A DNA stretch of 24,559 nucleotides from a virus: UHGV virus genome UHGV-0286028. One strand, written 5' to 3'. A model generated the notes under the pieces. It was not told the origin of the DNA and made no database searches. It saw only the letters and a list, made by a program, of their open reading frames with translations. How positions within the stretch are numbered: position 1 is the stretch's first letter; the number at the start of each line of letters is the position of its first letter. Shown in pieces: positions 136 through 23,204 of the stretch. A program made the position numbers and the translations under genes.

Positions 136-150
136 TTACCTTAAAGGTAT
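136..150. promoter_or_regulatory. Operator-like palindrome TTACC-TTAAA-GGTAT upstream of int (one mismatch to TTACC-N5-GGTAA)
   Basis: Matches the 15-bp inverted repeat found at the other operon starts in this window; lies about 45 bp upstream of the int start. Confidence 0.45.
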
Positions 151-2987: not shown

Positions 2988-3929
2988 TTACATAGATGTT
3001 TCGTTTAATTCTTCCCGACGAACGCTGTAAACGTCGGTGGCTTTTGCCAGCAGTTCGTCATCATCTGAAAGTTTTTGTGCAATGTATTTGTAAGCCTTAT
3101 CCAGTTCGGAGACAGTGCTGTAATTCATCGCTGCGCTGGTAAAGGCCATCAGCATTTCTTCTGGATCACGGCTATCCGCTTTACGAGTTTGCTCATCAGG
3201 CTTTTTCACTGGTTTAGCGTTGATCAGACTGTTCATTCCCGCAGCAGTGGTCGTTTGCGGAGTAATGTCTCGCTCAACGCGCGGTGCCGTTTCCTGTAAT
3301 TCGTCTGGTGTGTAGACGCCCATGATTACGTCAGGACAGTGCAAGCGAGACCAGCGTTTTGTCGCAAGGTATGCGAGTTGTTGTTTCGGATCACTGGCCC
3401 AAAGTGTGGAGTTTCTTACCTGTGCTTGAGACAGCATTAACTCAAGCACTCGAGGTTGATCCTCGCCCTTCATGGTTGCCCATACGCGAACACCGCAGCC
3501 TTCTTCGTCTTTTAGAGTCCAGCCTGGTGCGATATATGGATTGCCGTTTTTGGATGTTTTCTCAACAAACTTACCGATCACGCGTTCCCACGGCCCGAAC
3601 CACTCGTAGTTGATGCGATCTTTTGTTGGCGACATCGTTGAGATAACTGCGTTTACTAATTGGGCTTCATAACCTAGCGTGCCGTTCACAACATGGGTTT
3701 TCTGAGCCACGGCAAACGGGTTCATTCCCCACTGCGCAGCCTGCATTGCCACGGCCATGCAATCAGCTGGTTTCCCGGCGAGGTGCGCCGGTACCGTTAC
3801 GCGGCTTTGCGCCATTACCTCGGCGAATTTCATCAGTTGGTTCAAGCCGTCTGGGCTGAAAATAGTTGCAGCAGTTCCAGCGATTGCTGTGTCTACTGGT
3901 GCGTTGATGTTTGCGATGTCGTTGCTCAT
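2988..3929 (-). CDS. recT: RecT/Red-beta family single-strand annealing recombinase
   Basis: ATG at 3929 overlaps the exonuclease stop (ATGA); core region (QWGMNPF ... KRWSRLHCPDVIMGVYTPDE) resembles the Bet/RecT fold pattern; immediately downstream of the partner exonuclease. Confidence 0.75.
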   Translation of the reverse strand: MSNDIANINAPVDTAIAGTAATIFSPDGLNQLMKFAEVMAQSRVTVPAHLAGKPADCMAVAMQAAQWGMNPFAVAQKTHVVNGTLGYEAQLVNAVISTMSPTKDRINYEWFGPWERVIGKFVEKTSKNGNPYIAPGWTLKDEEGCGVRVWATMKGEDQPRVLELMLSQAQVRNSTLWASDPKQQLAYLATKRWSRLHCPDVIMGVYTPDELQETAPRVERDITPQTTTAAGMNSLINAKPVKKPDEQTRKADSRDPEEMLMAFTSAAMNYSTVSELDKAYKYIAQKLSDDDELLAKATDVYSVRREELNETSM

Positions 3930-4747
3930 ATGTACATATCCTGTTTGCGTGCCCACTCAGGGCGTTTAATGATTTCCACACCGCCCCATTCATCATTTAT
4001 GCGGCATTCGTGATAGGTATTCAGATCCCGGCGGAACAGAGCGTGCCCGGCATCGACATCCGGCGCATCCAGCTCGAACACGCGTACCGGATACCGACCA
4101 CAATCAATGCTTTCGCTCACGGCAAGAAAGAAAAAACCATGCGGCTGACCAGTAACCCTCATTGCGCCTTCGCGGTACATTGCGTCCTGCACGTGGTAGC
4201 GGAATTCCTCGATGTGGCGTGCAAAACGGTCCATATCTGCAACCTTTTTCACGTCGACGATCACGTTGTGCTCGTTCAGCCATTTGTCTGGACGAATGCG
4301 GCACAACTCACCAGTCTCTTCATCATTCCAGTACATTGATGCTTCGCAGTAACCAGGTGCTTCCAGCATCCAGCGTGCCGCCGGGTGAGCCATTGCGCTA
4401 TCACGCATCAGCTCCAGTTTCCGCCACTGCTCGGCATCAAGTACCGTAATCCCCATATCCGCTACATCACGAAGAAATGCTTCTTCGTCAGCTTTACCTT
4501 GTTTCGTCCGACGATCGAACTTCGGTGAAACAATGAAGCGTTTGTCGAATTCTCCAGGCTCCAGAAGCAGACAGTGCAATGCGGTTCCCATATCCAGTGC
4601 AGACTTTTTCTCTTCGTCTTCTGGTGCTGCCTGGACCCATTTAAGAAGCGCCGGATTCTTGGCAACCATGTCCAGTTGCGACTTACTCACGCCGTCACCG
4701 GCGTGGTAGTCTTCGTTGCTGATGTCGAAATAAATTCCCGGTTTCAT
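3926..4747 (-). CDS. PD-(D/E)XK exonuclease (YqaJ / exonuclease VIII-like), recombination partner of RecT
   Basis: 273 aa; N-terminus MKPGIYFDISNEDYHAGDGVSKSQLDM typical of phage PDDEXK exonucleases; ATGA overlap with the upstream gene stop and with the recT start. Confidence 0.75.
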   Translation of the reverse strand: MKPGIYFDISNEDYHAGDGVSKSQLDMVAKNPALLKWVQAAPEDEEKKSALDMGTALHCLLLEPGEFDKRFIVSPKFDRRTKQGKADEEAFLRDVADMGITVLDAEQWRKLELMRDSAMAHPAARWMLEAPGYCEASMYWNDEETGELCRIRPDKWLNEHNVIVDVKKVADMDRFARHIEEFRYHVQDAMYREGAMRVTGQPHGFFFLAVSESIDCGRYPVRVFELDAPDVDAGHALFRRDLNTYHECRINDEWGGVEIIKRPEWARKQDMYI

Positions 4748-5045: not shown

Positions 5046-5198
5046 TCAGCCCTCCCATATCTCGTTATCGTTGGCTACATCGCGAGCTTCTTTGCTGACG
5101 AAAGCCCACTTAATGCCTTCCTGTAAGGTGCGGAACTTCCAGCTCATGAATCCGCATGCAGTAACGCAGTACCAACCGTTGATGATTTTCCACTGCAT
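5046..5198 (-). CDS. Small hypothetical protein (50 aa), first gene of the leftward early operon
   Basis: Below the ORF-track cutoff; I translated it as MQWKIINGWYCVTACGFMSWKFRTLQEGIKWAFVSKEARDVANDNEIWEG; GAGG about 9 nt upstream of the ATG; TGA stop 2 nt before the next ATG. Confidence 0.35.
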   Translation of the reverse strand: MQWKIINGWYCVTACGFMSWKFRTLQEGIKWAFVSKEARDVANDNEIWEG

Positions 5199-5217: not shown

Positions 5218-5232
5218 TTACCGTTGAGGTAA
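5218..5232. promoter_or_regulatory. Operator palindrome TTACC-GTTGA-GGTAA (leftward-promoter region, site 1)
   Basis: Perfect 5+5 inverted repeat with 5-bp spacer; between the repressor terminator and the leftward operon. Confidence 0.6.
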
Positions 5233-5279
5233 TAATTATGCGTATCTGGTTTGATCTCAATAGGTATGAGTTAAAAAAA

Positions 5280-5294
5280 TTACCCGTTAGGTAA
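5280..5294. promoter_or_regulatory. Operator palindrome TTACC-CGTTA-GGTAA (leftward-promoter region, site 2)
   Basis: Perfect inverted repeat, 62 bp centre-to-centre from site 1. Confidence 0.6.
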
Positions 5295-5305
5295 TCGAAT
5301 AGGCA

Positions 5306-5329
5306 ATAAAAAAGCCGCCATAAGGCGGC
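5306..5329 (-). terminator. Rho-independent terminator downstream of the repressor gene (minus strand)
   Basis: Stem GCCGCC (5314-5319) / GGCGGC (5324-5329), loop ATAA; A-run 5306-5313 on plus = U-run after the hairpin on the minus transcript. Confidence 0.65.
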
Positions 5330-5351
5330 TTACTTACTGAAAAATATGATT

Positions 5352-5936
5352 TTATTGTTTGTTTTTTTCGTTCTGGTTGATGACAAATTCAATGTAACTT
5401 TCGATCTTTGCCTTCTCTGTTTCAGGTAACAATGCGTAGCGCGAGCGGTCATAGTTGATAGTTGCAGGGTCATGCGGATGAATCAGTAGTTCATATCCGT
5501 GACGCCCGAATGCAGATGCAACATTCTCCAGGGTGGAAATGGAAACGCTGACCTCATTGTTTAACAGGCGGCTTATTGTCACCTGGGCGACGCCGGATGC
5601 GCGGTGAAGTTTTCCCTGAGTTGAAAGGTCGCGGCTTTCACTCATCCAGCGTTCCAGGTTGTGAGCTGCCAGCTGACCAATGTCGCTTGGGCCGACAGGC
5701 TGAAAACCTTCCTGAGAAAGCGAGCGATCGATATCAAGCCAGTTACGGGGTTTATTGGCGGCAGCTTCAATTTTTCGCGCAACCTGGTCGCCGATAACCT
5801 TCTTGCCAAGAGCCCAGCGGTTTACCAGATTTGCCTGAGTTCCAAGTTTTTCTGCCATCCGCGTCTGAACACCATTGAATTCACGGTCGATCAAGTCGTT
5901 GAGATTTTGCCTGCGGACGTCCTGGATACTTTTCAT
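5352..5936 (-). CDS. CI-like immunity repressor with two HTH (Cro/C1-type) domains and no peptidase domain
   Basis: 194 aa; N-terminal HTH pattern (TRMAEKLGTQANLVNRWALGKK) and a second HTH-like segment (GVAQVTISRLLNNEVSVSISTLENVASAFG); divergent from a Cro-like gene across a 154-bp region with three palindromic sites; no S24 Ala-Gly/Ser-Lys motifs seen. Confidence 0.6.
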   Translation of the reverse strand: MKSIQDVRRQNLNDLIDREFNGVQTRMAEKLGTQANLVNRWALGKKVIGDQVARKIEAAANKPRNWLDIDRSLSQEGFQPVGPSDIGQLAAHNLERWMSESRDLSTQGKLHRASGVAQVTISRLLNNEVSVSISTLENVASAFGRHGYELLIHPHDPATINYDRSRYALLPETEKAKIESYIEFVINQNEKNKQ

Positions 5937-5991
5937 TTTCTGGAAAATCGCCTCATATATGAATCAGTAGATGATTCAATTTAAAGCAATA

Positions 5992-6054
5992 TTACCCAAC
6001 AGGTAAATGCACCTCATAGGTAACTATCCTTGATTTTTGTTACCTTATGGGTGA
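5992..6054. promoter_or_regulatory. Tripartite operator cluster between repressor and cro-like genes (5992-6006, 6009-6023, 6040-6054)
   Basis: TTACC-CAACA-GGTAA (perfect), GCACC-TCATA-GGTAA (degenerate left half), TTACC-TTATG-GGTGA (one mismatch); spacing 17 and 31 bp, reminiscent of an OR1-3 arrangement. Confidence 0.65.
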
Positions 6055-6090
6055 ATATTTATTATCTGAAATAAATATCAGGCAATAGCT

Positions 6091-6321: not shown

Positions 6322-6343
6322 TATCCAGCTACAACCCTCTGTA

Positions 6344-6365
6344 GACCGCCACCCGGCGGTCTTTT
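6344..6365 (+). terminator. Rho-independent terminator after the cro-like gene (tR1-like position)
   Basis: Stem GACCGCC (6344-6350) / GGCGGTC (6355-6361), loop ACCC, then TTTT. Confidence 0.65.
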
Positions 6366-6376
6366 CATATCTATTC

Positions 6377-6391
6377 GTACCTCAAAGGTAA
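6377..6391. promoter_or_regulatory. Operator-like palindrome GTACC-TCAAA-GGTAA just downstream of the post-cro terminator
   Basis: One mismatch to TTACC-N5-GGTAA; 12 bp after the terminator T-run. Confidence 0.45.
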
Positions 6392-8272: not shown

Positions 8273-8287
8273 TTACCTGACGGGTAA
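8273..8287. promoter_or_regulatory. Operator palindrome TTACC-TGACG-GGTAA
   Basis: Perfect inverted repeat in the P / DUF1064 intergenic region. Confidence 0.6.
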
Positions 8288-8335
8288 TAAAATATTCTAA
8301 AATCTATTGATTTCGTGTCTTATGTGGTTTTTAAT

Positions 8336-8350
8336 TACCTTGGAGGTAAA
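8336..8350. promoter_or_regulatory. Operator palindrome TTACC-TTGGA-GGTAA overlapping the Shine-Dalgarno of the next gene
   Basis: Perfect inverted repeat; the GGAGG inside it is the RBS for the ATG at 8353. Confidence 0.6.
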
Positions 8351-8352
8351 TC

Positions 8353-8697
8353 ATGAAAAAACAGATACAGGCTCTTGGTCGACTCAAAACAGGCCAGATG
8401 AACAAAACAGAATCTGCGTATTGCCAGCACCTTGAGCAGCGTAAACGTGCAGGGGAAATCGCCTGGTATCGATTCGAGGGTATCAAGCTGCGGTTAGCTG
8501 ACAACACGTTCTATACGCCCGATTTTGCTGTGATGCTCGCCACCGGCGAGATGGAACTGCACGAAGTGAAAGGTTTCTGGACCGACGACGCCAGGGTGAA
8601 AACCAAAGTCGCCGCAGATCAGTATCCGTTCCGAATCATCGGGGTAACGGTTAAACCAAAGAAAGCAGGTGGTGGCTGGAACATCGAAGAGTTCTGA
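8353..8697 (+). CDS. DUF1064-like protein, predicted PD-(D/E)XK nuclease fold
   Basis: 114 aa; YTPDFAV ... ELHEVKG fits a D ... E-x-K nuclease motif; position equivalent to the nin-region recombination/resolvase genes of lambdoid phages. Confidence 0.55.
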   Translation: MKKQIQALGRLKTGQMNKTESAYCQHLEQRKRAGEIAWYRFEGIKLRLADNTFYTPDFAVMLATGEMELHEVKGFWTDDARVKTKVAADQYPFRIIGVTVKPKKAGGGWNIEEF

Positions 8698-11420: not shown

Positions 11421-11650
11421 CATGTCACGAAGGTGTTATGCCAAAAATACGCTACGACCTTGAAGATATGAGAGATAACTCAGCAAATTTTCCGAAAGAG
11501 GTTAAATTTCTCATGCATAAGTATGGTTGCGCCAAGAGGGATATAGTTATCGACAGTCAGCACCCTTGCGGCGAGGATGTAATTTTCATTCGCGGTAAAT
11601 GGGAAGGGTATCTTGACGAGAGTTTTTACGATGAATTTGATGGACTTTGA
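11417..11650 (+). CDS. Small hypothetical protein, last gene before the late-operon terminator
   Basis: 77-aa ORF with ATGA-type overlap to the upstream gene. Confidence 0.4.
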   Translation: MTCHEGVMPKIRYDLEDMRDNSANFPKEVKFLMHKYGCAKRDIVIDSQHPCGEDVIFIRGKWEGYLDESFYDEFDGL

Positions 11651-11655
11651 ATACT

Positions 11656-11681
11656 GCCGCCAACTATGGCGGCTTTATTTT
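11656..11681 (+). terminator. Rho-independent terminator between the early/accessory block and the terminase genes
   Basis: Perfect stem GCCGCCA (11656-11662) / TGGCGGC (11667-11673), loop ACTA, then TTTATTTT. Confidence 0.75.
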
Positions 11682-11692
11682 GCATGGTACTA

Positions 11693-11725
11693 TTACCACA
11701 ACGGTAACTATTACCACGGTGGTTA
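11693..11725. promoter_or_regulatory. Twin operator palindromes directly upstream of, and overlapping, the terminase small-subunit start
   Basis: TTACC-ACAAC-GGTAA (11693-11707, perfect) and TTACC-ACGGT-GGTTA (11711-11725, one mismatch); the second ends at the first base of the ATG at 11725. Confidence 0.55.
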
Positions 11726-14359: not shown

Positions 14360-14443
14360 GAACTGGAAGCAATGAGTTATGCCTTCCGTGGCTGTACTGG
14401 TTTACAGCATGAAGTCATCGCAATGGCGTCCTGCTGTAAAAAG

Positions 14444-14522: not shown

Positions 14523-14599
14523 TGGCGTGGCATGCAGGATTCGAACCTGCGACCAACCGCTTAGAAGACGGTTGCTCTGTCCAACTGAGCTAATGCCAC
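14523..14599 (-). tRNA. tRNA-Arg (anticodon UCU), phage-borne, argU-like
   Basis: 77 nt; I folded the reverse complement by hand: acceptor GTGGCAT/ATGCCAC, D-arm GCTC-AGTTGGACA-GAGC, anticodon stem ACCGT/GCGGT with loop CTTCTAA (U33, UCU, A37), T-arm GCAGG-TTCGAAT-CCTGC, discriminator G, encoded CCA. Confidence 0.9.
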
Positions 14600-14921: not shown

Positions 14922-14936
14922 TTACCTGAAAGGTAA
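14922..14936. promoter_or_regulatory. Operator palindrome TTACC-TGAAA-GGTAA upstream of the structural operon
   Basis: Perfect inverted repeat between the tRNA-leader region and the first structural gene. Confidence 0.6.
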
Positions 14937-18919: not shown

Positions 18920-18935
18920 CGCCTGTTATTAACCT

Positions 18936-18955
18936 GTGGGTCGTAACAGACCCAC
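18936..18955 (+). other. Stem-loop immediately downstream of the capsid gene
   Basis: GTGGGTC (18936-18942) / GACCCAC (18949-18955), 6-nt loop, no T-run. Confidence 0.45.
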
Positions 18956-19418: not shown

Positions 19419-19754
19419 ATGTCAGGTGAGAAACCAAGATACCGCGTTCTGCGCCTCTCTCATATCCATAACACTCTGTGGCCGGAGGGGGCAGAAATCG
19501 AATACGAAGGTGAGCCTGGTAGCGCACTGGAACCTGTTAACGATGCAGCCAGACAGGCAAAAGCAAAAGTTGCAGGAAAGGTGTCAATGGCAGCAACCAG
19601 CACCAAAATCATCAACGATGTGTCAGATGATGGTGAACTGGATAAGCTCCGTGAAGAGTACGAATTGCTCTTTAACGAGAAGCCACACCATAACGCCAAA
19701 GCAGAAACGCTCCGCGAGAAGATCGCAGATAAGCGTAAAGAACTAGGCGTGTAA
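19419..19754 (+). CDS. Hypothetical structural-module protein
   Basis: ATG 19419 with AAGGTGA SD; charged C-terminal half; followed by a terminator. Confidence 0.45.
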   Translation: MSGEKPRYRVLRLSHIHNTLWPEGAEIEYEGEPGSALEPVNDAARQAKAKVAGKVSMAATSTKIINDVSDDGELDKLREEYELLFNEKPHHNAKAETLREKIADKRKELGV

Positions 19755-19770
19755 GCCTCGCGAATCCGAC

Positions 19771-19792
19771 AAGGGGCTTCTGCCCCTTTATT
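19771..19792 (+). terminator. Rho-independent terminator after the capsid sub-operon
   Basis: Perfect stem AAGGGGC (19771-19777) / GCCCCTT (19782-19788), loop TTCT, then TATT. Confidence 0.65.
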
Positions 19793-19804
19793 GCAGGAGT
19801 GTAT

Positions 19805-20128
19805 ATGGAACTCGTAAACCTCAAAACCGGCACTGACAGCTACCAGGATGAGAGCGGAGAAACCAGAACTCGCGATGAATACCCGTGGGGGCTGTGCATC
19901 ACTCTTAATAACGACACATTGAATAAGCTGAAGGCGCAACCTCAGGGCGTCGGAACAGAAGTGATGATAACTGCAAAAGCTGTTATTCGAGGCCTGTCTG
20001 CCAGAGAAACTGACGATGGTGTTAATCGCAGCGCCGATCTGCAGATCACTGATATGGCAATCGCTCCTGTTTCCGGTGATGTAGAAAAATCAGCGGCTGA
20101 AACCCTCTACGGTAACGGGGGTGAGTGA
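19805..20128 (+). CDS. Hypothetical virion protein
   Basis: ATG 19805 with AGGAG SD; 107 aa; precedes the gp11-like gene. Confidence 0.45.
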   Translation: MELVNLKTGTDSYQDESGETRTRDEYPWGLCITLNNDTLNKLKAQPQGVGTEVMITAKAVIRGLSARETDDGVNRSADLQITDMAIAPVSGDVEKSAAETLYGNGGE

Positions 20129-20733
20129 TGGCCTCTGTAGTAGAGATCTGTAATCGTGCGCTGTCCAATATTGGCAACAGCCGCAGCATTAACAGCCTGA
20201 CGGAAGCCAGCAAGGAAGCAGGGGAATGTTCGCTGCACTTTGAGGCCTGCCGTGATGCTGTGCTTTCTGATTTTGACTGGAACTTTGCTACCAAACGCGT
20301 GGCGCTTGCAGATACGAACAATCCACCGCCTGACTGGGAATATGCGTACCAGTACCCGTCCGATTGTCTGCGCATTACTGAAATTATGCTTCCTGGTGTA
20401 CGCAATCCAACAGCAGCAATGCGCGTTCAGTACGAAGCTGGTGCAGACACCAACGGAACAGGAAAGTTGATCTACACAGACCAGCCGCAGGCATGGCTCA
20501 AGTATGTCTCTCGCGTTTCAGATGTGAACATGTTTGATGCCATTTTTATGGAGGCGTTGGCCTGGCGTCTTGCGGCAGCTATTAACATGGCGCTGACTGG
20601 GAATGCAGACCTCGGTACGTTTGCCCTCAATATGTACAATCGCGTGATTCTTAGTGCTGGCTCGCATAGCCAGAATGAATCACAGGAACCACAGCCACCG
20701 GTTGATGAGTTTACCATTGCGAGGTTGTCCTGA
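20128..20733 (+). CDS. Tail adaptor / tubular protein A (T7 gp11-like)
   Basis: About 200 aa (T7 gp11 is about 196 aa); N-terminal pattern ICNRALSNIG ... DFDWNF resembles gp11 (ILASIG ... RGWTF); sits directly before the large gp12-like gene. Confidence 0.55.
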   Translation: MASVVEICNRALSNIGNSRSINSLTEASKEAGECSLHFEACRDAVLSDFDWNFATKRVALADTNNPPPDWEYAYQYPSDCLRITEIMLPGVRNPTAAMRVQYEAGADTNGTGKLIYTDQPQAWLKYVSRVSDVNMFDAIFMEALAWRLAAAINMALTGNADLGTFALNMYNRVILSAGSHSQNESQEPQPPVDEFTIARLS

Positions 20734-23204
20734 TGGCTATCAGTTGGATCCAGCCCAGCTTTGCCGGTGGTGAGATTGGACCGTCGTTGTACGGGCGTAT
20801 TGACATGGCGAAGTACCAGGTGGCATTGCGCAAGTGCGATAACTTTATCGTGCGGCAGTATGGCGGCGTAGAGAATCGACCTGGTACGCGTTTTGTCGGT
20901 GCCGCCAAATACCCAAATCGGAAATGCCGCCTGATCCCGTTCCAGTTCTCGACGGTTCAGACTTATGCTCTGGAGTTCGGACACCAGTACATGCGCGTTA
21001 TCAAAGATGGTGCGTTGGTGCTGAACAGCAGCAATGTTATTTATGAAATTTCCACGCCATATACTGAAGCCGATCTGTTCCGAATTAAATTCACGCAAAG
21101 CGCAGACGTGCTTACGCTGGTTCATCCGGCATACCCGCCGAAAGAGTTGCGCCGCTATGCGCATGACAACTGGCAACTGGTTGATGTGGTAACGAAGAAC
21201 GGGCCATTTGAAGATATCAATATTGACGAGTCAGTGACGGTTTATGCCAGCGCCAGCACCGGGACAATTACGCTAACGGCAAGCGCCTCTATTTTTGGCG
21301 CGGAGCAGGTAGGCAAATTGTTCTATCTGGAACAGCCTGCAGTGGATTCTGTGCCGGTATGGGAAACCAGTAAGAGTACGTCGATTGGCGATATTCGCCG
21401 TGCAGACAGTAACTACTATCGCGCCGTTACAGCAGGCAAAACAGGCACTTTGCGCCCTTCGCATACAGAAGGCACATCATGGGATGGCTGGGGCGGATCC
21501 GGTGATGATGATACCGGCATTGAGTGGGAGTATCTGCACAGTGGTTTTGGCATTGCCCGTATCTCTGCTGCAAATGGAACTACTGCAACTGCCGAGGTGA
21601 TTTCCTATATCCCTTCGCAGGTAGTTGGCGAGGATAATGCCAGCTATAAATGGGCTAAATATGCCTGGAACAGTATTAACGGTTATCCTGGCACTGTTGT
21701 TTATTATCAACAACGTCTTTACTTCGCCGCATCGACAGCGTTCCCTCAGACTATCTGGGCCAGCCGTACTGGGGATTATAAGGATTTTGGCAAAAGCAAT
21801 CCTACGCAGGATGACGACAGAATTATCTACACCTATGCCGGGCGTCAGGTTAATGAGATCCGCCACCTGATTGATGTCGGTTCGCTGGTGGCACTGACTT
21901 CCGGAGGTGAGTACGTCATCACCGGCGACCAGAACAAAGTATTAACTCCATCATCATTTGCATTCAGCTCTCAGGGATCAAATGGTTCGAGCAATGTCCC
22001 ACCAATTGCCGTGGCGAATATTGCTCTGTTCGTCCAGGAGAAAGGCAGTGTTGTCCGTGATCTGGCCTACTCATTCGATGTTGACGGCTATCAGGGGAAC
22101 GACCTTACTATCCTTGCCAATCATCTTTTTCAGAAGCACAGCATTGTTGACTGGTGCTTCTCGATTGTCCCTTACTCCAGTGCCTTCTGCATTCGTGATG
22201 ACGGTAAATTACTGGTGATGACCTATTTGCGTGATCAGCAGGTTTTTGCATGGGCACCACAATCCAGTACCGGAAAATATGAAAGCACATGCAGTATCAG
22301 CGAAGGCAATGAAGATGCGGTGTATTTCGTCGTTAACAGAACCGTTAACGGGCAAACAGTGAGATACATCGAGAGACTGTCCAGCCGTTTATTTACCAGC
22401 GATGAAGATGCTTTCTTTGTTGATTCTGGCCTTAGCTATGATGGAAGAAATACGTCTGACAGAACGATGACCATCACTGGTGGTTCTGGTGAATGGGATT
22501 ACCACGCGGAATATACAATCAGTGTTTCTGGTGGTGCGTACTTCACCAGTAGTGATGTTGGTGCGCAACTACAGTTCCCTTATACCGGAGCTGATCCTGA
22601 TACTGGCGATGAAGTGTCAAAAGAATTACGTTGCGACATTATTTCTGTAACCAGCAATACCGCAGTAGTGGTTCGTGCTAACAGGAACGTCCCGCCATCC
22701 CTCAGGAATGTGGCCACCACGAACTGGCAGATGGCGCGCCGGACATTTGGCGGCTTGTCTCATCTTGAAGGCCAGACCGTAAACATCCTCTCTGATGCGA
22801 ACGTGGAACCACAAAAAGTGGTTTCCGGAGGTGCCGTCACGCTGGAATCACCGGGGGCTGTTGTGCACATCGGCCTGCCAATAACTGCTGAATTCGAAAC
22901 ACTGGATATCAACATTAACGGACAGGAAACGCTGCTGGACAAAAAACAGGTGATCCCGTCCGTTACTCTGGTTGTGAATGCCAGTCGCGGCATCTGGGCG
23001 ACTACGCCCGGCGGTAAATGGTACGAATATCCACAGCGTGAATTCGAGTTCTACGATGATCCTGTTGATGATGCTACCGGAAAAGTAGAAGTGAAACTGG
23101 ACAGTAACTGGGGCAAAAACGGGCGTGTAAAAATCCGTCAGCTTGACCCGTTGCCGCTGTCTGTTCTTGCCGTTATTCCTCGCCTTACTGTTGGGGGATT
23201 CTGA
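20733..23204 (+). CDS. Tail tubular protein B / nozzle (T7 gp12-like)
   Basis: 823 aa (T7 gp12 is about 794 aa); position after the gp11-like gene; N-terminus MAISWIQPSFAGGEIG resembles the gp12 start pattern. Confidence 0.6.
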   Translation: MAISWIQPSFAGGEIGPSLYGRIDMAKYQVALRKCDNFIVRQYGGVENRPGTRFVGAAKYPNRKCRLIPFQFSTVQTYALEFGHQYMRVIKDGALVLNSSNVIYEISTPYTEADLFRIKFTQSADVLTLVHPAYPPKELRRYAHDNWQLVDVVTKNGPFEDINIDESVTVYASASTGTITLTASASIFGAEQVGKLFYLEQPAVDSVPVWETSKSTSIGDIRRADSNYYRAVTAGKTGTLRPSHTEGTSWDGWGGSGDDDTGIEWEYLHSGFGIARISAANGTTATAEVISYIPSQVVGEDNASYKWAKYAWNSINGYPGTVVYYQQRLYFAASTAFPQTIWASRTGDYKDFGKSNPTQDDDRIIYTYAGRQVNEIRHLIDVGSLVALTSGGEYVITGDQNKVLTPSSFAFSSQGSNGSSNVPPIAVANIALFVQEKGSVVRDLAYSFDVDGYQGNDLTILANHLFQKHSIVDWCFSIVPYSSAFCIRDDGKLLVMTYLRDQQVFAWAPQSSTGKYESTCSISEGNEDAVYFVVNRTVNGQTVRYIERLSSRLFTSDEDAFFVDSGLSYDGRNTSDRTMTITGGSGEWDYHAEYTISVSGGAYFTSSDVGAQLQFPYTGADPDTGDEVSKELRCDIISVTSNTAVVVRANRNVPPSLRNVATTNWQMARRTFGGLSHLEGQTVNILSDANVEPQKVVSGGAVTLESPGAVVHIGLPITAEFETLDININGQETLLDKKQVIPSVTLVVNASRGIWATTPGGKWYEYPQREFEFYDDPVDDATGKVEVKLDSNWGKNGRVKIRQLDPLPLSVLAVIPRLTVGGF

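Follow-up and report, generated by a model that had tools for sequence, protein, structure and literature searches.

The locus studied here lies in a viral DNA stretch of 24,559 nucleotides (the window) and raises the question of how a lysogen can be held, and later induced, by a repressor that seems to lack the means of cutting itself. From the letters alone it had been read as an immunity switch, with a 194-aa repressor flanked by two operator sites on one side and three on the other, and with an antirepressor or another inducer to be expected if induction is not by autocleavage. We think that the best explanation, and a very probable one, is a switch of the kind found in phage SPC32H, where a non-cleavable repressor (Rep) is controlled by an antirepressor (Ant) that is itself under SOS control. 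With the same confidence we assign the region, as lysis/lysogeny switch, to a phiV10-type Escherichia coli prophage (genus Uetakevirus, epsilon15-like). This type of switch is already known and was solved earlier in the relative SPC32H; the sequence-only reading was thus correct but ordinary.

In a region comparison the DNA is 97-99% identical to phiV10, TL-2011b and vB_EcoP_ZX5, and 562 of 5426 complete E. coli genomes contain the region. There is no substantive difference from these three phages in either the repressor (p40, ORF21 and gp10, respectively) or its DNA, and their papers and records do not describe the operators. The genomic setting is that of the SPC32H type, with a divergent cro-like gene, a recET-type left operon, in which the first gene is followed by a 104-aa ORF, an exonuclease and RecT, and with DnaT/P replication genes and Uetakevirus virion genes. 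SPC32H is a Salmonella phage, whereas the element in the window belongs to E. coli and is integrated at guaA. A tRNA was the only match in the Rfam scan. The term immunity switch is well chosen, as the repressor and cro-like genes diverge and predicted operators cover the lytic promoters (Table 1). The cro-like protein had no Pfam match but is assigned by PHROG. As a discovery the locus carries little weight, because the repressor is identical to that of published phages, crystal structures and an antirepressor mechanism have been published for its family, and annotation of the operator motif already exists for epsilon15. Its value lies more in annotation: roughly a tenth of complete E. coli genomes have the switch under no better label than “helix-turn-helix domain-containing protein” or “hypothetical protein”, and its genes could be named Rep, Cro-like and Ant, with a predicted SOS-dependent induction via Ant.

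Table 1. Features of the switch region and further operator-like sites, in window coordinates.
Feature	Position	Strand	Evidence or remark
Doubtful operator-like site, TTACCTTAAAGGTAT	136..150		upstream of integrase gene, inside larger hairpin 129-164
First gene (50 aa) of leftward early block	5046..5198	-	homologues annotated in TL-2011b, phiV10, SPC32H
Left operator, promoter-proximal, TTACCGTTGAGGTAA, 0 mismatches	5218..5232		abuts -10, covers likely transcription start
Leftward early promoter-like site, TTGAGA-17-AATTAT	5232..5260	-	consensus match only; bracketed by left operators 62 bp apart
Left operator, promoter-distal, TTACCCGTTAGGTAA, 0 mismatches	5280..5294		arms invariant, spacer variable in 5 aligned phages
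Terminator-like hairpin and T-run ending repressor transcript	5312..5331	-	rho-independent terminator annotated at same place in phiV10
Repressor gene Rep, 194 aa	5352..5936	-	translation; homology; Pfam; AF2; Foldseek
Parts of Rep (residues)			N-terminal HTH DNA-binding ~1-72; linker 73-83; middle HTH_3-like ~83-151; C-terminal helix ~163-193
Right operator nearest repressor gene, TTACCCAACAGGTAA, 0 mismatches	5992..6006		motif scan; conservation
Middle right operator, GCACCTCATAGGTAA, 2 mismatches, degenerate left arm	6009..6023		conserved position
Rightward early promoter-like site, TTGTTA-17-TATTAT	6037..6065	+	promoter scan
Right operator inside rightward promoter core, TTACCTTATGGGTGA, 1 mismatch	6040..6054		motif scan; alignment
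Cro-like gene, 76 aa	6091..6321	+	PHROG 35 “transcriptional repressor”, E 5.6e-13
Terminator-like hairpin after cro-like gene	6343..6362	+	annotated terminator in phiV10
Extra operator-like site, GTACCTCAAAGGTAA	6377..6391		ahead of replication gene block; conserved in phiV10, Tyrion, L005
Extra operator, distal member of second 62-bp pair	8273..8287		downstream of lambda-P-like gene
Extra operator, proximal member of second 62-bp pair	8335..8349		spacer holds GGAGG RBS of gene starting 8353
Extra operator before small terminase gene	11693..11707		just after terminator-like hairpin 11656-11673
Extra operator, 1 mismatch	11711..11725		ends 3 nt before ATG at 11728
Extra operator before head-gene block	14922..14936		epsilon15 orthologue 2931-2947 annotated repressor-binding

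Translation of the open reading frame gave the 194-aa product that had been proposed. It is 100% identical to phiV10 p40, identical to vB_EcoP_ZX5 ORF21 and 98.5% identical to TL-2011b gp10, and a viral-contig scan returned 80 loci in which it is 100% identical. Among PDB entries phmmer found 5D50_A (“Repressor”; E 4e-42, residues 1-190) and 5D4Z (E 4e-20, residues 89-190), and tblastn matched KC911856, “rep: repressor”. The homology to SPC32H Rep covers the full length at 42% identity, with 53% in the DNA-binding part, 33% in the middle and 46% in the C-terminal part. Pfam places an HTH_3 domain at residues 106-147 (E 1.2e-9) and a weaker, sub-threshold Cro/YdaS-like HTH at residues 21-61. 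The AlphaFold2 (AF2) model, which is of moderate quality (pLDDT 76.8, pTM 0.41), is all-helical with three segments (1-72, 83-151 and 163-193) and no beta-rich domain, and the only top matches of this model in Foldseek were 5D50 and 5D4Z (“Rep-Ant complex from Salmonella-temperate phage”). By sequence and predicted fold, Rep is thus the orthologue of SPC32H Rep, with the same three-part architecture and without an autocleavage domain. The two HTH-like segments that had been noted are both there, but the second one should not be taken for another DNA reader: one paper (PMC9986798) gives the order in SPC32H Rep as DNA-binding domain, dimerisation domain and tetramerisation/Ant-binding domain, and assigns the second HTH-like segment to dimerisation. 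Overexpression of ZX5 ORF21, the identical repressor, abolished free phage and cut lysis-gene transcripts by more than 99.9% (PMC9782041).

Our picture of the mechanism draws on homology to SPC32H and on the literature about that phage. In SPC32H, Rep sits on its DNA as a tetramer, and Ant breaks the tetramer up (PMC9638917). A tetramer of the Rep studied here would bind through its N-terminal HTH domains, and as each pair of domains would read one palindrome, a single tetramer could hold two operators. The left pair, which lies 62 bp apart on the same helix face and around the leftward promoter, may in this way trap the promoter, and the 6009 and 6040 sites around the rightward promoter may offer a second trapping geometry. 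Upon DNA damage LexA would leave the ant promoter, and Ant would bind the C-terminal domain of Rep, so that the tetramer is broken and the DNA released while Rep stays uncleaved. The cro-like protein would probably use the same sites afterwards. The SPC32H switch was described by Kim and Ryu in 2013 (J Virol) and by Kim et al. in 2016 (PNAS), and Kim and Ryu reportedly found that SPC32H Rep is not cleaved on SOS induction and that its Ant is structurally distinct from the Gifsy/Fels-2 antirepressors. Gifsy-1/-3 and Fels-2 also have non-cleavable repressors that are inactivated by small SOS-controlled antirepressors (Lemire et al. 2011, PMC3121763); the likeness is one of logic only, and the phage types are different.

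An antirepressor gene with a LexA box, as the sequence-only reading expected, exists in phages with a 100% identical repressor. In phiV10 the product of p24 (85 aa) is 88% identical to SPC32H Ant and has a LexA box over its promoter. The boxes upstream of ant read TACTGTGTATTTATACAGTT in phiV10 and TACTGTATAAATATACAGTT in L005, a close guaA prophage; the small cognate Ant (about 86 aa) with LexA box that goes with an SPC32H-type Rep is thus seen in both. The ant region was found in 529 E. coli genomes, compared to 562 for the repressor region. That none could be identified in the window also holds; in L005, ant lies about 9 kb past the window end. Pfam gave no Bro-N, ANT or KilA-C domain in the 20 window ORFs scanned, which reach to about 11.6 kb, short of the terminase and virion genes, and LexA-box-like matches in the window are at chance level (8 against 8.55 expected). 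Perfect CTGT-N8-ACAG sequences are seen at 14392 and 18934. A pair of the P22 immI type, with an Arc-like repressor and an Ant of about 300 aa, is found in TL-2011b (gp41/gp42) and is absent from the searched window ORFs and from phiV10, SPC32H and L005.

There is another protein that could be the main inducer, the larger Bro-N “anti-immunity” protein of the phiV10 p23 and ZX5 ORF4 type, whose gene adjoins ant in phiV10, TL-2011b, Tyrion and L005. Overexpression of ZX5 ORF4 lowered the prophage titre from 1e9 to 1e6 and the repressor transcripts by 75% (PMC9782041). The Bro-N gene is however preceded by a Rep-type operator and not by a LexA box (phiV10 20497, L005 35209), so that its expression should have to wait until Rep is off the DNA. 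The protein is also poorly conserved (39% between ZX5 and phiV10) and absent from SPC32H, whereas the small ant, at 88% conservation, is the gene with the LexA box. We consider it improbable that induction goes mainly through the Bro-N protein and prefer the small Ant as the inducer.

The operator consensus is a 15-bp palindrome, TTACC-N5-GGTAA; a version with a 6-bp spacer gave a weak signal and was discarded, the correct spacer being 5 bp. All five sites of the 2 + 3 arrangement were found where they had been placed and match the palindrome, with the 17 and 31 bp spacings in the right trio as claimed and 62 bp in the left pair. There are 11 sites with at most one mismatch in the window, where 0.46 would be expected, and none of 100 shuffles reached 11. 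Among all 5-Nx-5 palindromes the motif ranks first, both in the window and in each of four related phage genomes, and in phiV10, 13 of 15 sites fall wholly within the non-coding 6.5% of the genome (P ~3e-14). Alignments with SPC32H and Tyrion show invariant operator arms with variable spacers and flanks. The spacings are conserved in 10 of 11 genomes, with 62 bp on the left, or 63 in one Klebsiella phage, and 17 + 30/31 bp on the right. The 6009 site is weak, but we accept it because its position is kept in 11 relatives, and it is a perfect palindrome in SPC32H and epsilon15. SPC32H is alike in gene order and in operator motif, numbers and spacings; it differs in its diverged Rep, in having three left operators instead of two, and in the middle right operator, which is perfect there and degenerate here.

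Both promoter-like sites overlap operators in the promoter scan. The position of the leftward one between the left operators is conserved in alignment, and TTGATTTTT at the rightward one is invariant in a five-phage alignment. By eye, the rightward promoter can also be read as TTGATT (6030-6035) with GAATAT (6053-6058). For the repressor gene the scan gave nothing convincing as a promoter; a minus-strand reading by hand, TTTACC-18-TAAATT, which overlaps the 5992 site, is below threshold and is not relied on. The position of the motif is plain, over the leftward and rightward early promoter-like sites and ahead of most other gene blocks, and we take the palindromes as predicted Rep operators.

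It could be argued that Rep binds other DNA and that the main reader of the palindromes is a different protein, such as the cro-like product or a host factor. Four distant Rep homologues (54-65% identity, with variants in the recognition helix) all keep TTACC-N5-GGTAA, and there is no covariation between helix and operator, as relatives with NLVSRW, NLISRW and NLINRW have the same half-site. The half-site is thus constant where the recognition helix of Rep changes, and for that reason the comparative data cannot tell which protein reads the motif. The cro-like protein, 76% identical to SPC32H_042, is also more conserved than Rep (42%), and could be what constrains the motif. On the other side, the DNA-binding domain is the best-conserved part of Rep, N36, R40 and W41 are invariant in 17 homologues, and the placing of the sites, within both early promoters and in front of the late, lysis and tail-fibre genes, is what one expects of a lysogenic repressor. 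It is usual for repressor and Cro to use a common set of operators, as in lambda, 434 and P22, which we count against a separate reader. In the epsilon15 record the bound moiety is given as the repressor, in an annotation that may be computational. Taken together, we find it quite unlikely that Rep is not the main reader of these sites.

The operators are not confined to the switch, and here the 2 + 3 description, correct for its five sites, falls short. Seven further sites are present in the window, at least six of them credible and ahead of other gene blocks and the seventh (136) doubtful, which brings the map to about 12 credible sites, or about 13 with the doubtful one. In the epsilon15 record (gp38 repressor, AY150271.2), ATTACC-N5-GGTAAT is annotated “protein_bind: repressor” at seven dispersed intergenic places, including orthologues of the window sites 5218/5280, 8273, 11693 (12-27 in epsilon15) and 14922; the three sites between the repressor and cro-like genes are without annotation there. 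The region that matches the 136 site is annotated for RNase III and integrase binding, and not for the repressor. P1 C1 has many dispersed operators, one per transcription unit, and is inactivated by an antirepressor (Coi/Ant), but it is an unrelated protein with an asymmetric operator. Tentatively, we suggest that Rep may repress the whole genome, with each unit (left and right early, replication, packaging, head, tail fibre, lysis and Bro-N) at its own terminator-insulated, operator-bearing promoter, and with a spacing of exactly 62 bp in the pairs that would suit the two DNA-reading heads of a single tetramer. The TTACC half-site is common to all Rep relatives, down to 42% identity, and if the suggestion is true, immunity specificity must be set by something besides the half-site, or there is broad cross-immunity across host genera. 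A 2023 paper (PMC9986798) states that how repression works structurally has yet to be characterised in depth, and the operator map, with its 17 + 31 trio and its 62-bp pairs on either side of promoters, may help to model repression by the Rep tetramer.

The resemblance to lambda is found in the divergent repressor and cro genes, in multiple operators at the left and right early promoters, in the potential for cooperativity and looping, and in the lambda P-like replication genes. Rep differs from lambda CI and LexA in having neither S24 domain nor cleavage site, and by analogy it would act as a tetramer and not as a dimer of dimers; this phage type also has operators beyond the switch, in front of its replication, packaging, head, tail-fibre and lysis genes. 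Gene order is all that speaks for a Rep of the CI/LexA type, induced by RecA-stimulated self-cleavage. Peptidase_S24 (PF00717) was absent from Rep in a Pfam search up to E 0.1 and from all 86 clusters of Rep homologues, no S24 structure appeared among the Foldseek matches, and Rep contains no cysteine and neither of the dipeptides Ala-Gly and Cys-Gly. The absence of an S24/LexA-type peptidase claimed from the sequence has stood up, the proposed check by structure prediction and profile search having returned an all-helical protein like SPC32H Rep, and we reject autocleavage by S24 at the level of sequence and fold; self-cleavage of any such kind is extremely unlikely.

That the palindromes are features of the transcript (small hairpins, RNase III sites or parts of terminators) and not protein-binding DNA is hardly credible either: several do come after terminator hairpins, and the 136 site is inside a larger hairpin with an RNase III annotation in epsilon15, but we reject the RNA reading because the arms are invariant and do not covary, and the stems are of 5 bp only, the palindromes stand in either orientation relative to transcription and within promoter cores, and the fixed 62-bp and 17/31-bp spacings are features of DNA geometry.

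The repressor of the switch (Rep, 194 aa, 5352-5936 on the minus strand) belongs to the SPC32H/epsilon15 Rep family, with 100% identity to phiV10 p40 and ZX5 ORF21. In a PDB search its residues 1-190 matched chain 5D50_A, 'Repressor' (E 4e-42), and residues 89-190 matched 5D4Z. The AlphaFold2 model (17 homologues, pLDDT 76.8) is all-helical, with segments 1-72, 83-151 and 163-193 and low-confidence linkers, and its only significant Foldseek matches were 5D4Z and 5D50, the 'Rep-Ant complex from Salmonella-temperate phage'. That the repressor lacks an S24/LexA-type peptidase, as the sequence-only reading had it, is borne out by model and Foldseek, by Pfam, which gave no Peptidase_S24 match in Rep up to E 0.1, and by the homologues, where the domain occurs in 0 of 86 clusters; neither Ala-Gly nor Cys-Gly is present anywhere in Rep. 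A lambda-CI/LexA-type repressor is rejected, and the window repressor differs from that type. The two HTH-like segments of the same reading both have Pfam matches (HTH_3 at residues 106-147, E 1.2e-9, and a weaker Cro/YdaS-like HTH at residues 21-61), but the HTH_3 segment, the second along the chain, is rather a dimerisation domain, since SPC32H Rep, as PMC9986798 states with reference to Kim et al. 2016, has an N-terminal DNA-binding domain, a middle domain that dimerises and a C-terminal domain through which the tetramer forms and Ant is bound.

Over the 1.5 kb surrounding the switch, DNA identity is 97-99% with Escherichia phages phiV10, TL-2011b, vB_EcoP_ZX5 and others, all epsilon15-like podoviruses of the genus Uetakevirus, and of 5426 complete E. 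coli genomes 562 contain the region. One closely matching genome carries the prophage at the 3' end of guaA, the reported attachment site of ZX5, phiV10 and epsilon15 (PMC9782041), and the window begins a short way in from the left prophage end and reaches the internal virion protein genes. With a protein identical to those of published phages, the window repressor would be expected to work like the described Rep-Ant switch. According to PMC9638917, a Rep tetramer binds DNA, one palindrome being read by the DNA-binding domains of two different dimers, and tetrameric Ant splits it. The Gifsy and Fels-2 antirepressor systems (PMC3121763) share this logic and not a demonstrated ancestry.

All five operators claimed around the repressor gene were found in place, and the claimed right-side spacings of 17 and 31 bp held when measured start to start; the left pair is 62 bp apart. 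Their common motif is a 15-bp palindrome, TTACC-N5-GGTAA (a 6-bp spacer was a wrong first guess). When every 5-Nx-5 palindrome was counted, with no prior motif assumed, it ranked first in the window, TL-2011b, phiV10, SPC32H and Tyrion, and when up to one mismatch is allowed the window holds 11 sites where 0.46 would be expected; no shuffle equalled 11. The weakest site, 6009, is confirmed because its position is orthologous: it keeps its 17-bp distance from the adjacent site in 11 genomes, and SPC32H and epsilon15 have a perfect palindrome there. When the window is aligned with SPC32H and Tyrion, spacers and flanks vary but none of the five-base arms does, the footprint of a protein-binding site. 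Among the 11 genomes compared (L001-L007 and the more distant L088-L091) the 62-bp pair (63 in one Klebsiella phage) and the trio of 17 and 30/31 bp are kept in 10, the sole exception being a distant Serratia-type relative, L089, with a left spacing of 75 bp. The observation is confirmed, and its interpretation as an immunity switch is supported.

Features of the switch, the dispersed operators and the antirepressor genes (window positions unless a phage is named)
Feature	Position	Sequence or remark
Integrase gene	193-1443	near left end of window
Left operator	5218	TTACCGTTGAGGTAA
Left operator	5280	TTACCCGTTAGGTAA
Right operator	5992	TTACCCAACAGGTAA
Right operator	6009	GCACCTCATAGGTAA; weakest of the five
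Right operator	6040	TTACCTTATGGGTGA
Leftward promoter-like site	5260 to 5232	TTGAGA-17-AATTAT; between the two left operators
Rightward promoter-like site	6037-6065	core contains 6040 operator
cro-like gene	6091-6321	
Extra operator-like sites	6377-6391; 8273-8287; 8335-8349; 11693-11707; 11711-11725; 14922-14936	
Operator-like site	136-150	doubtful as operator
Terminator-like hairpins beside operators	5312-5331; 6343-6362; 11656-11673	
ant gene, phiV10	20543-20800	
ant gene, SPC32H	19676-19936	

Position, conservation and the annotation of epsilon15 in the database make Rep the putative binder of TTACC-N5-GGTAA. No covariation of recognition helix and operator was seen, as relatives at 54-65% identity all keep the motif; helices NLVSRW, NLISRW and NLINRW (vs NLVNRW) go with an unchanged TTACC half-site, and the comparative data therefore do not separate Rep, as reader of the motif, from the cro-like protein, which probably uses the same operators. 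The latter matches PHROG 35. With TTACC constant despite differing helices, it is not apparent that the half-site accounts for immunity specificity in this family. Identity between phiV10-type and SPC32H proteins is 88% for Ant and 76% for the cro-like protein but only 42% for Rep (DNA-binding domain 53%, middle 33%, C-terminal 46%), and judged from these values Rep appears to evolve much faster than both partners.

The set of two plus three operators is real but not complete, for further sites lie elsewhere in the window. Apart from the doubtful site at 136, they stand ahead of the replication, DUF1064/Ead, terminase and head-gene blocks, in most cases behind a terminator-like hairpin and before the first gene of the block, and the phage looks organised as insulated transcription units, each repressed separately. 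Phage P1 has a dispersed-operator layout in common with it. The whole genomes of phiV10 and TL-2011b have about 14 sites each, some beside ant, the Bro-N gene, the tail-fibre gene and the lysis genes. In phiV10, 13 of 15 sites fall wholly within annotated non-coding DNA (6.5% of the genome, P ~3e-14), and the remaining two are in the 5' part of the small terminase gene, an extension that was probably mis-called. With its start at 11647 (phiV10 and RefSeq annotation), the long ORF would span the 11656-11673 hairpin and two operators; more plausible is window 11728, the start chosen for TL-2011b, SPC32H and epsilon15, and its ATG is 3 nt from the end of the 11711 operator. Sites 8273 and 8335 are exactly 62 bp apart, like 5218 and 5280, which suggests a fixed geometry in which a single repressor tetramer would span two sites flanking a promoter; the spacer of 8335 contains GGAGG, the ribosome-binding site for a gene that begins at 8353. 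Site 136, upstream of the integrase gene, lies within a larger inverted repeat (129-164, GACGGTAT...ATACCGTC). It is doubtful, because for the corresponding stretch of its genome the epsilon15 record gives binding of RNase III and integrase. That GenBank record also lists ATTACC-N5-GGTAAT as 'protein_bind: repressor, lysogeny' in seven scattered positions, which coincide with our motif hits. Dispersed operators are thus already known, and only the fuller map is new.

An antirepressor with a LexA box had been expected, with none identifiable in the window, and both expectations held. Among the ORFs of the early region and left arm, up to about 11.6 kb, Pfam and PHROG searches found no Bro-N, ANT or KilA-C protein. 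LexA-box-like matches in the window are at chance level, so the perfect CTGT-N8-ACAG at 14392-14407 and 18934-18949 are probably meaningless. The ant gene annotated in SPC32H encodes 86 aa and has the genes for internal virion proteins on one side and the tailspike gene on the other, and phiV10, whose Rep is identical, has an 85-aa homologue of its product there. Upstream stand TACTGTGTATTTATACAGTT in phiV10, a LexA box CTGT-N8-ACAG, TACTGTATGTTTATACAGTG in SPC32H and TACTGTATAAATATACAGTT in the guaA prophage of E. coli DSM 103246, against which the window ends about 9 kb short of ant. The ant region occurs in 529 E. coli genomes, near the number with the repressor region. The Bro-N gene is another candidate inducer, and overexpression of ZX5 ORF4, of this type, reduces lysogeny (PMC9782041); it is likelier to reinforce induction downstream than to trigger it, because a Rep-type operator and not a LexA box precedes it. 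TL-2011b has, besides small ant and the Bro-N gene, a P22 immI-like Arc repressor and a 314-aa Ant (31060-32244), so that up to three antirepressor-type modules are stacked in some members of the group.

SOS induction would remove LexA from the promoter of the small ant gene, and Ant would then dismantle the Rep tetramer, Rep leaving all operators uncut. One tetramer may hold two palindromes simultaneously, and a promoter between them would be clamped, since 62 bp (about six helical turns) and 31 bp (about three) would place paired sites on the same DNA face. The proximal left operator covers the start region of the leftward promoter-like site, and the -35-like TTGATT adjoining the rightward one is invariant across relatives. 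For the repressor gene itself, nothing convincing came out of the promoter scan.

RecT and a PD-(D/E)XK exonuclease (2988-4747, minus strand) are separate overlapping ORFs in the window and TL-2011b, whereas the phiV10 record annotates one RecE-RecT fusion. A tRNA-Arg (anticodon TCT, 14523-14599, minus strand) lies in a non-coding gap between terminase and head genes, and is found at the same setting in SPC32H and the guaA prophage.
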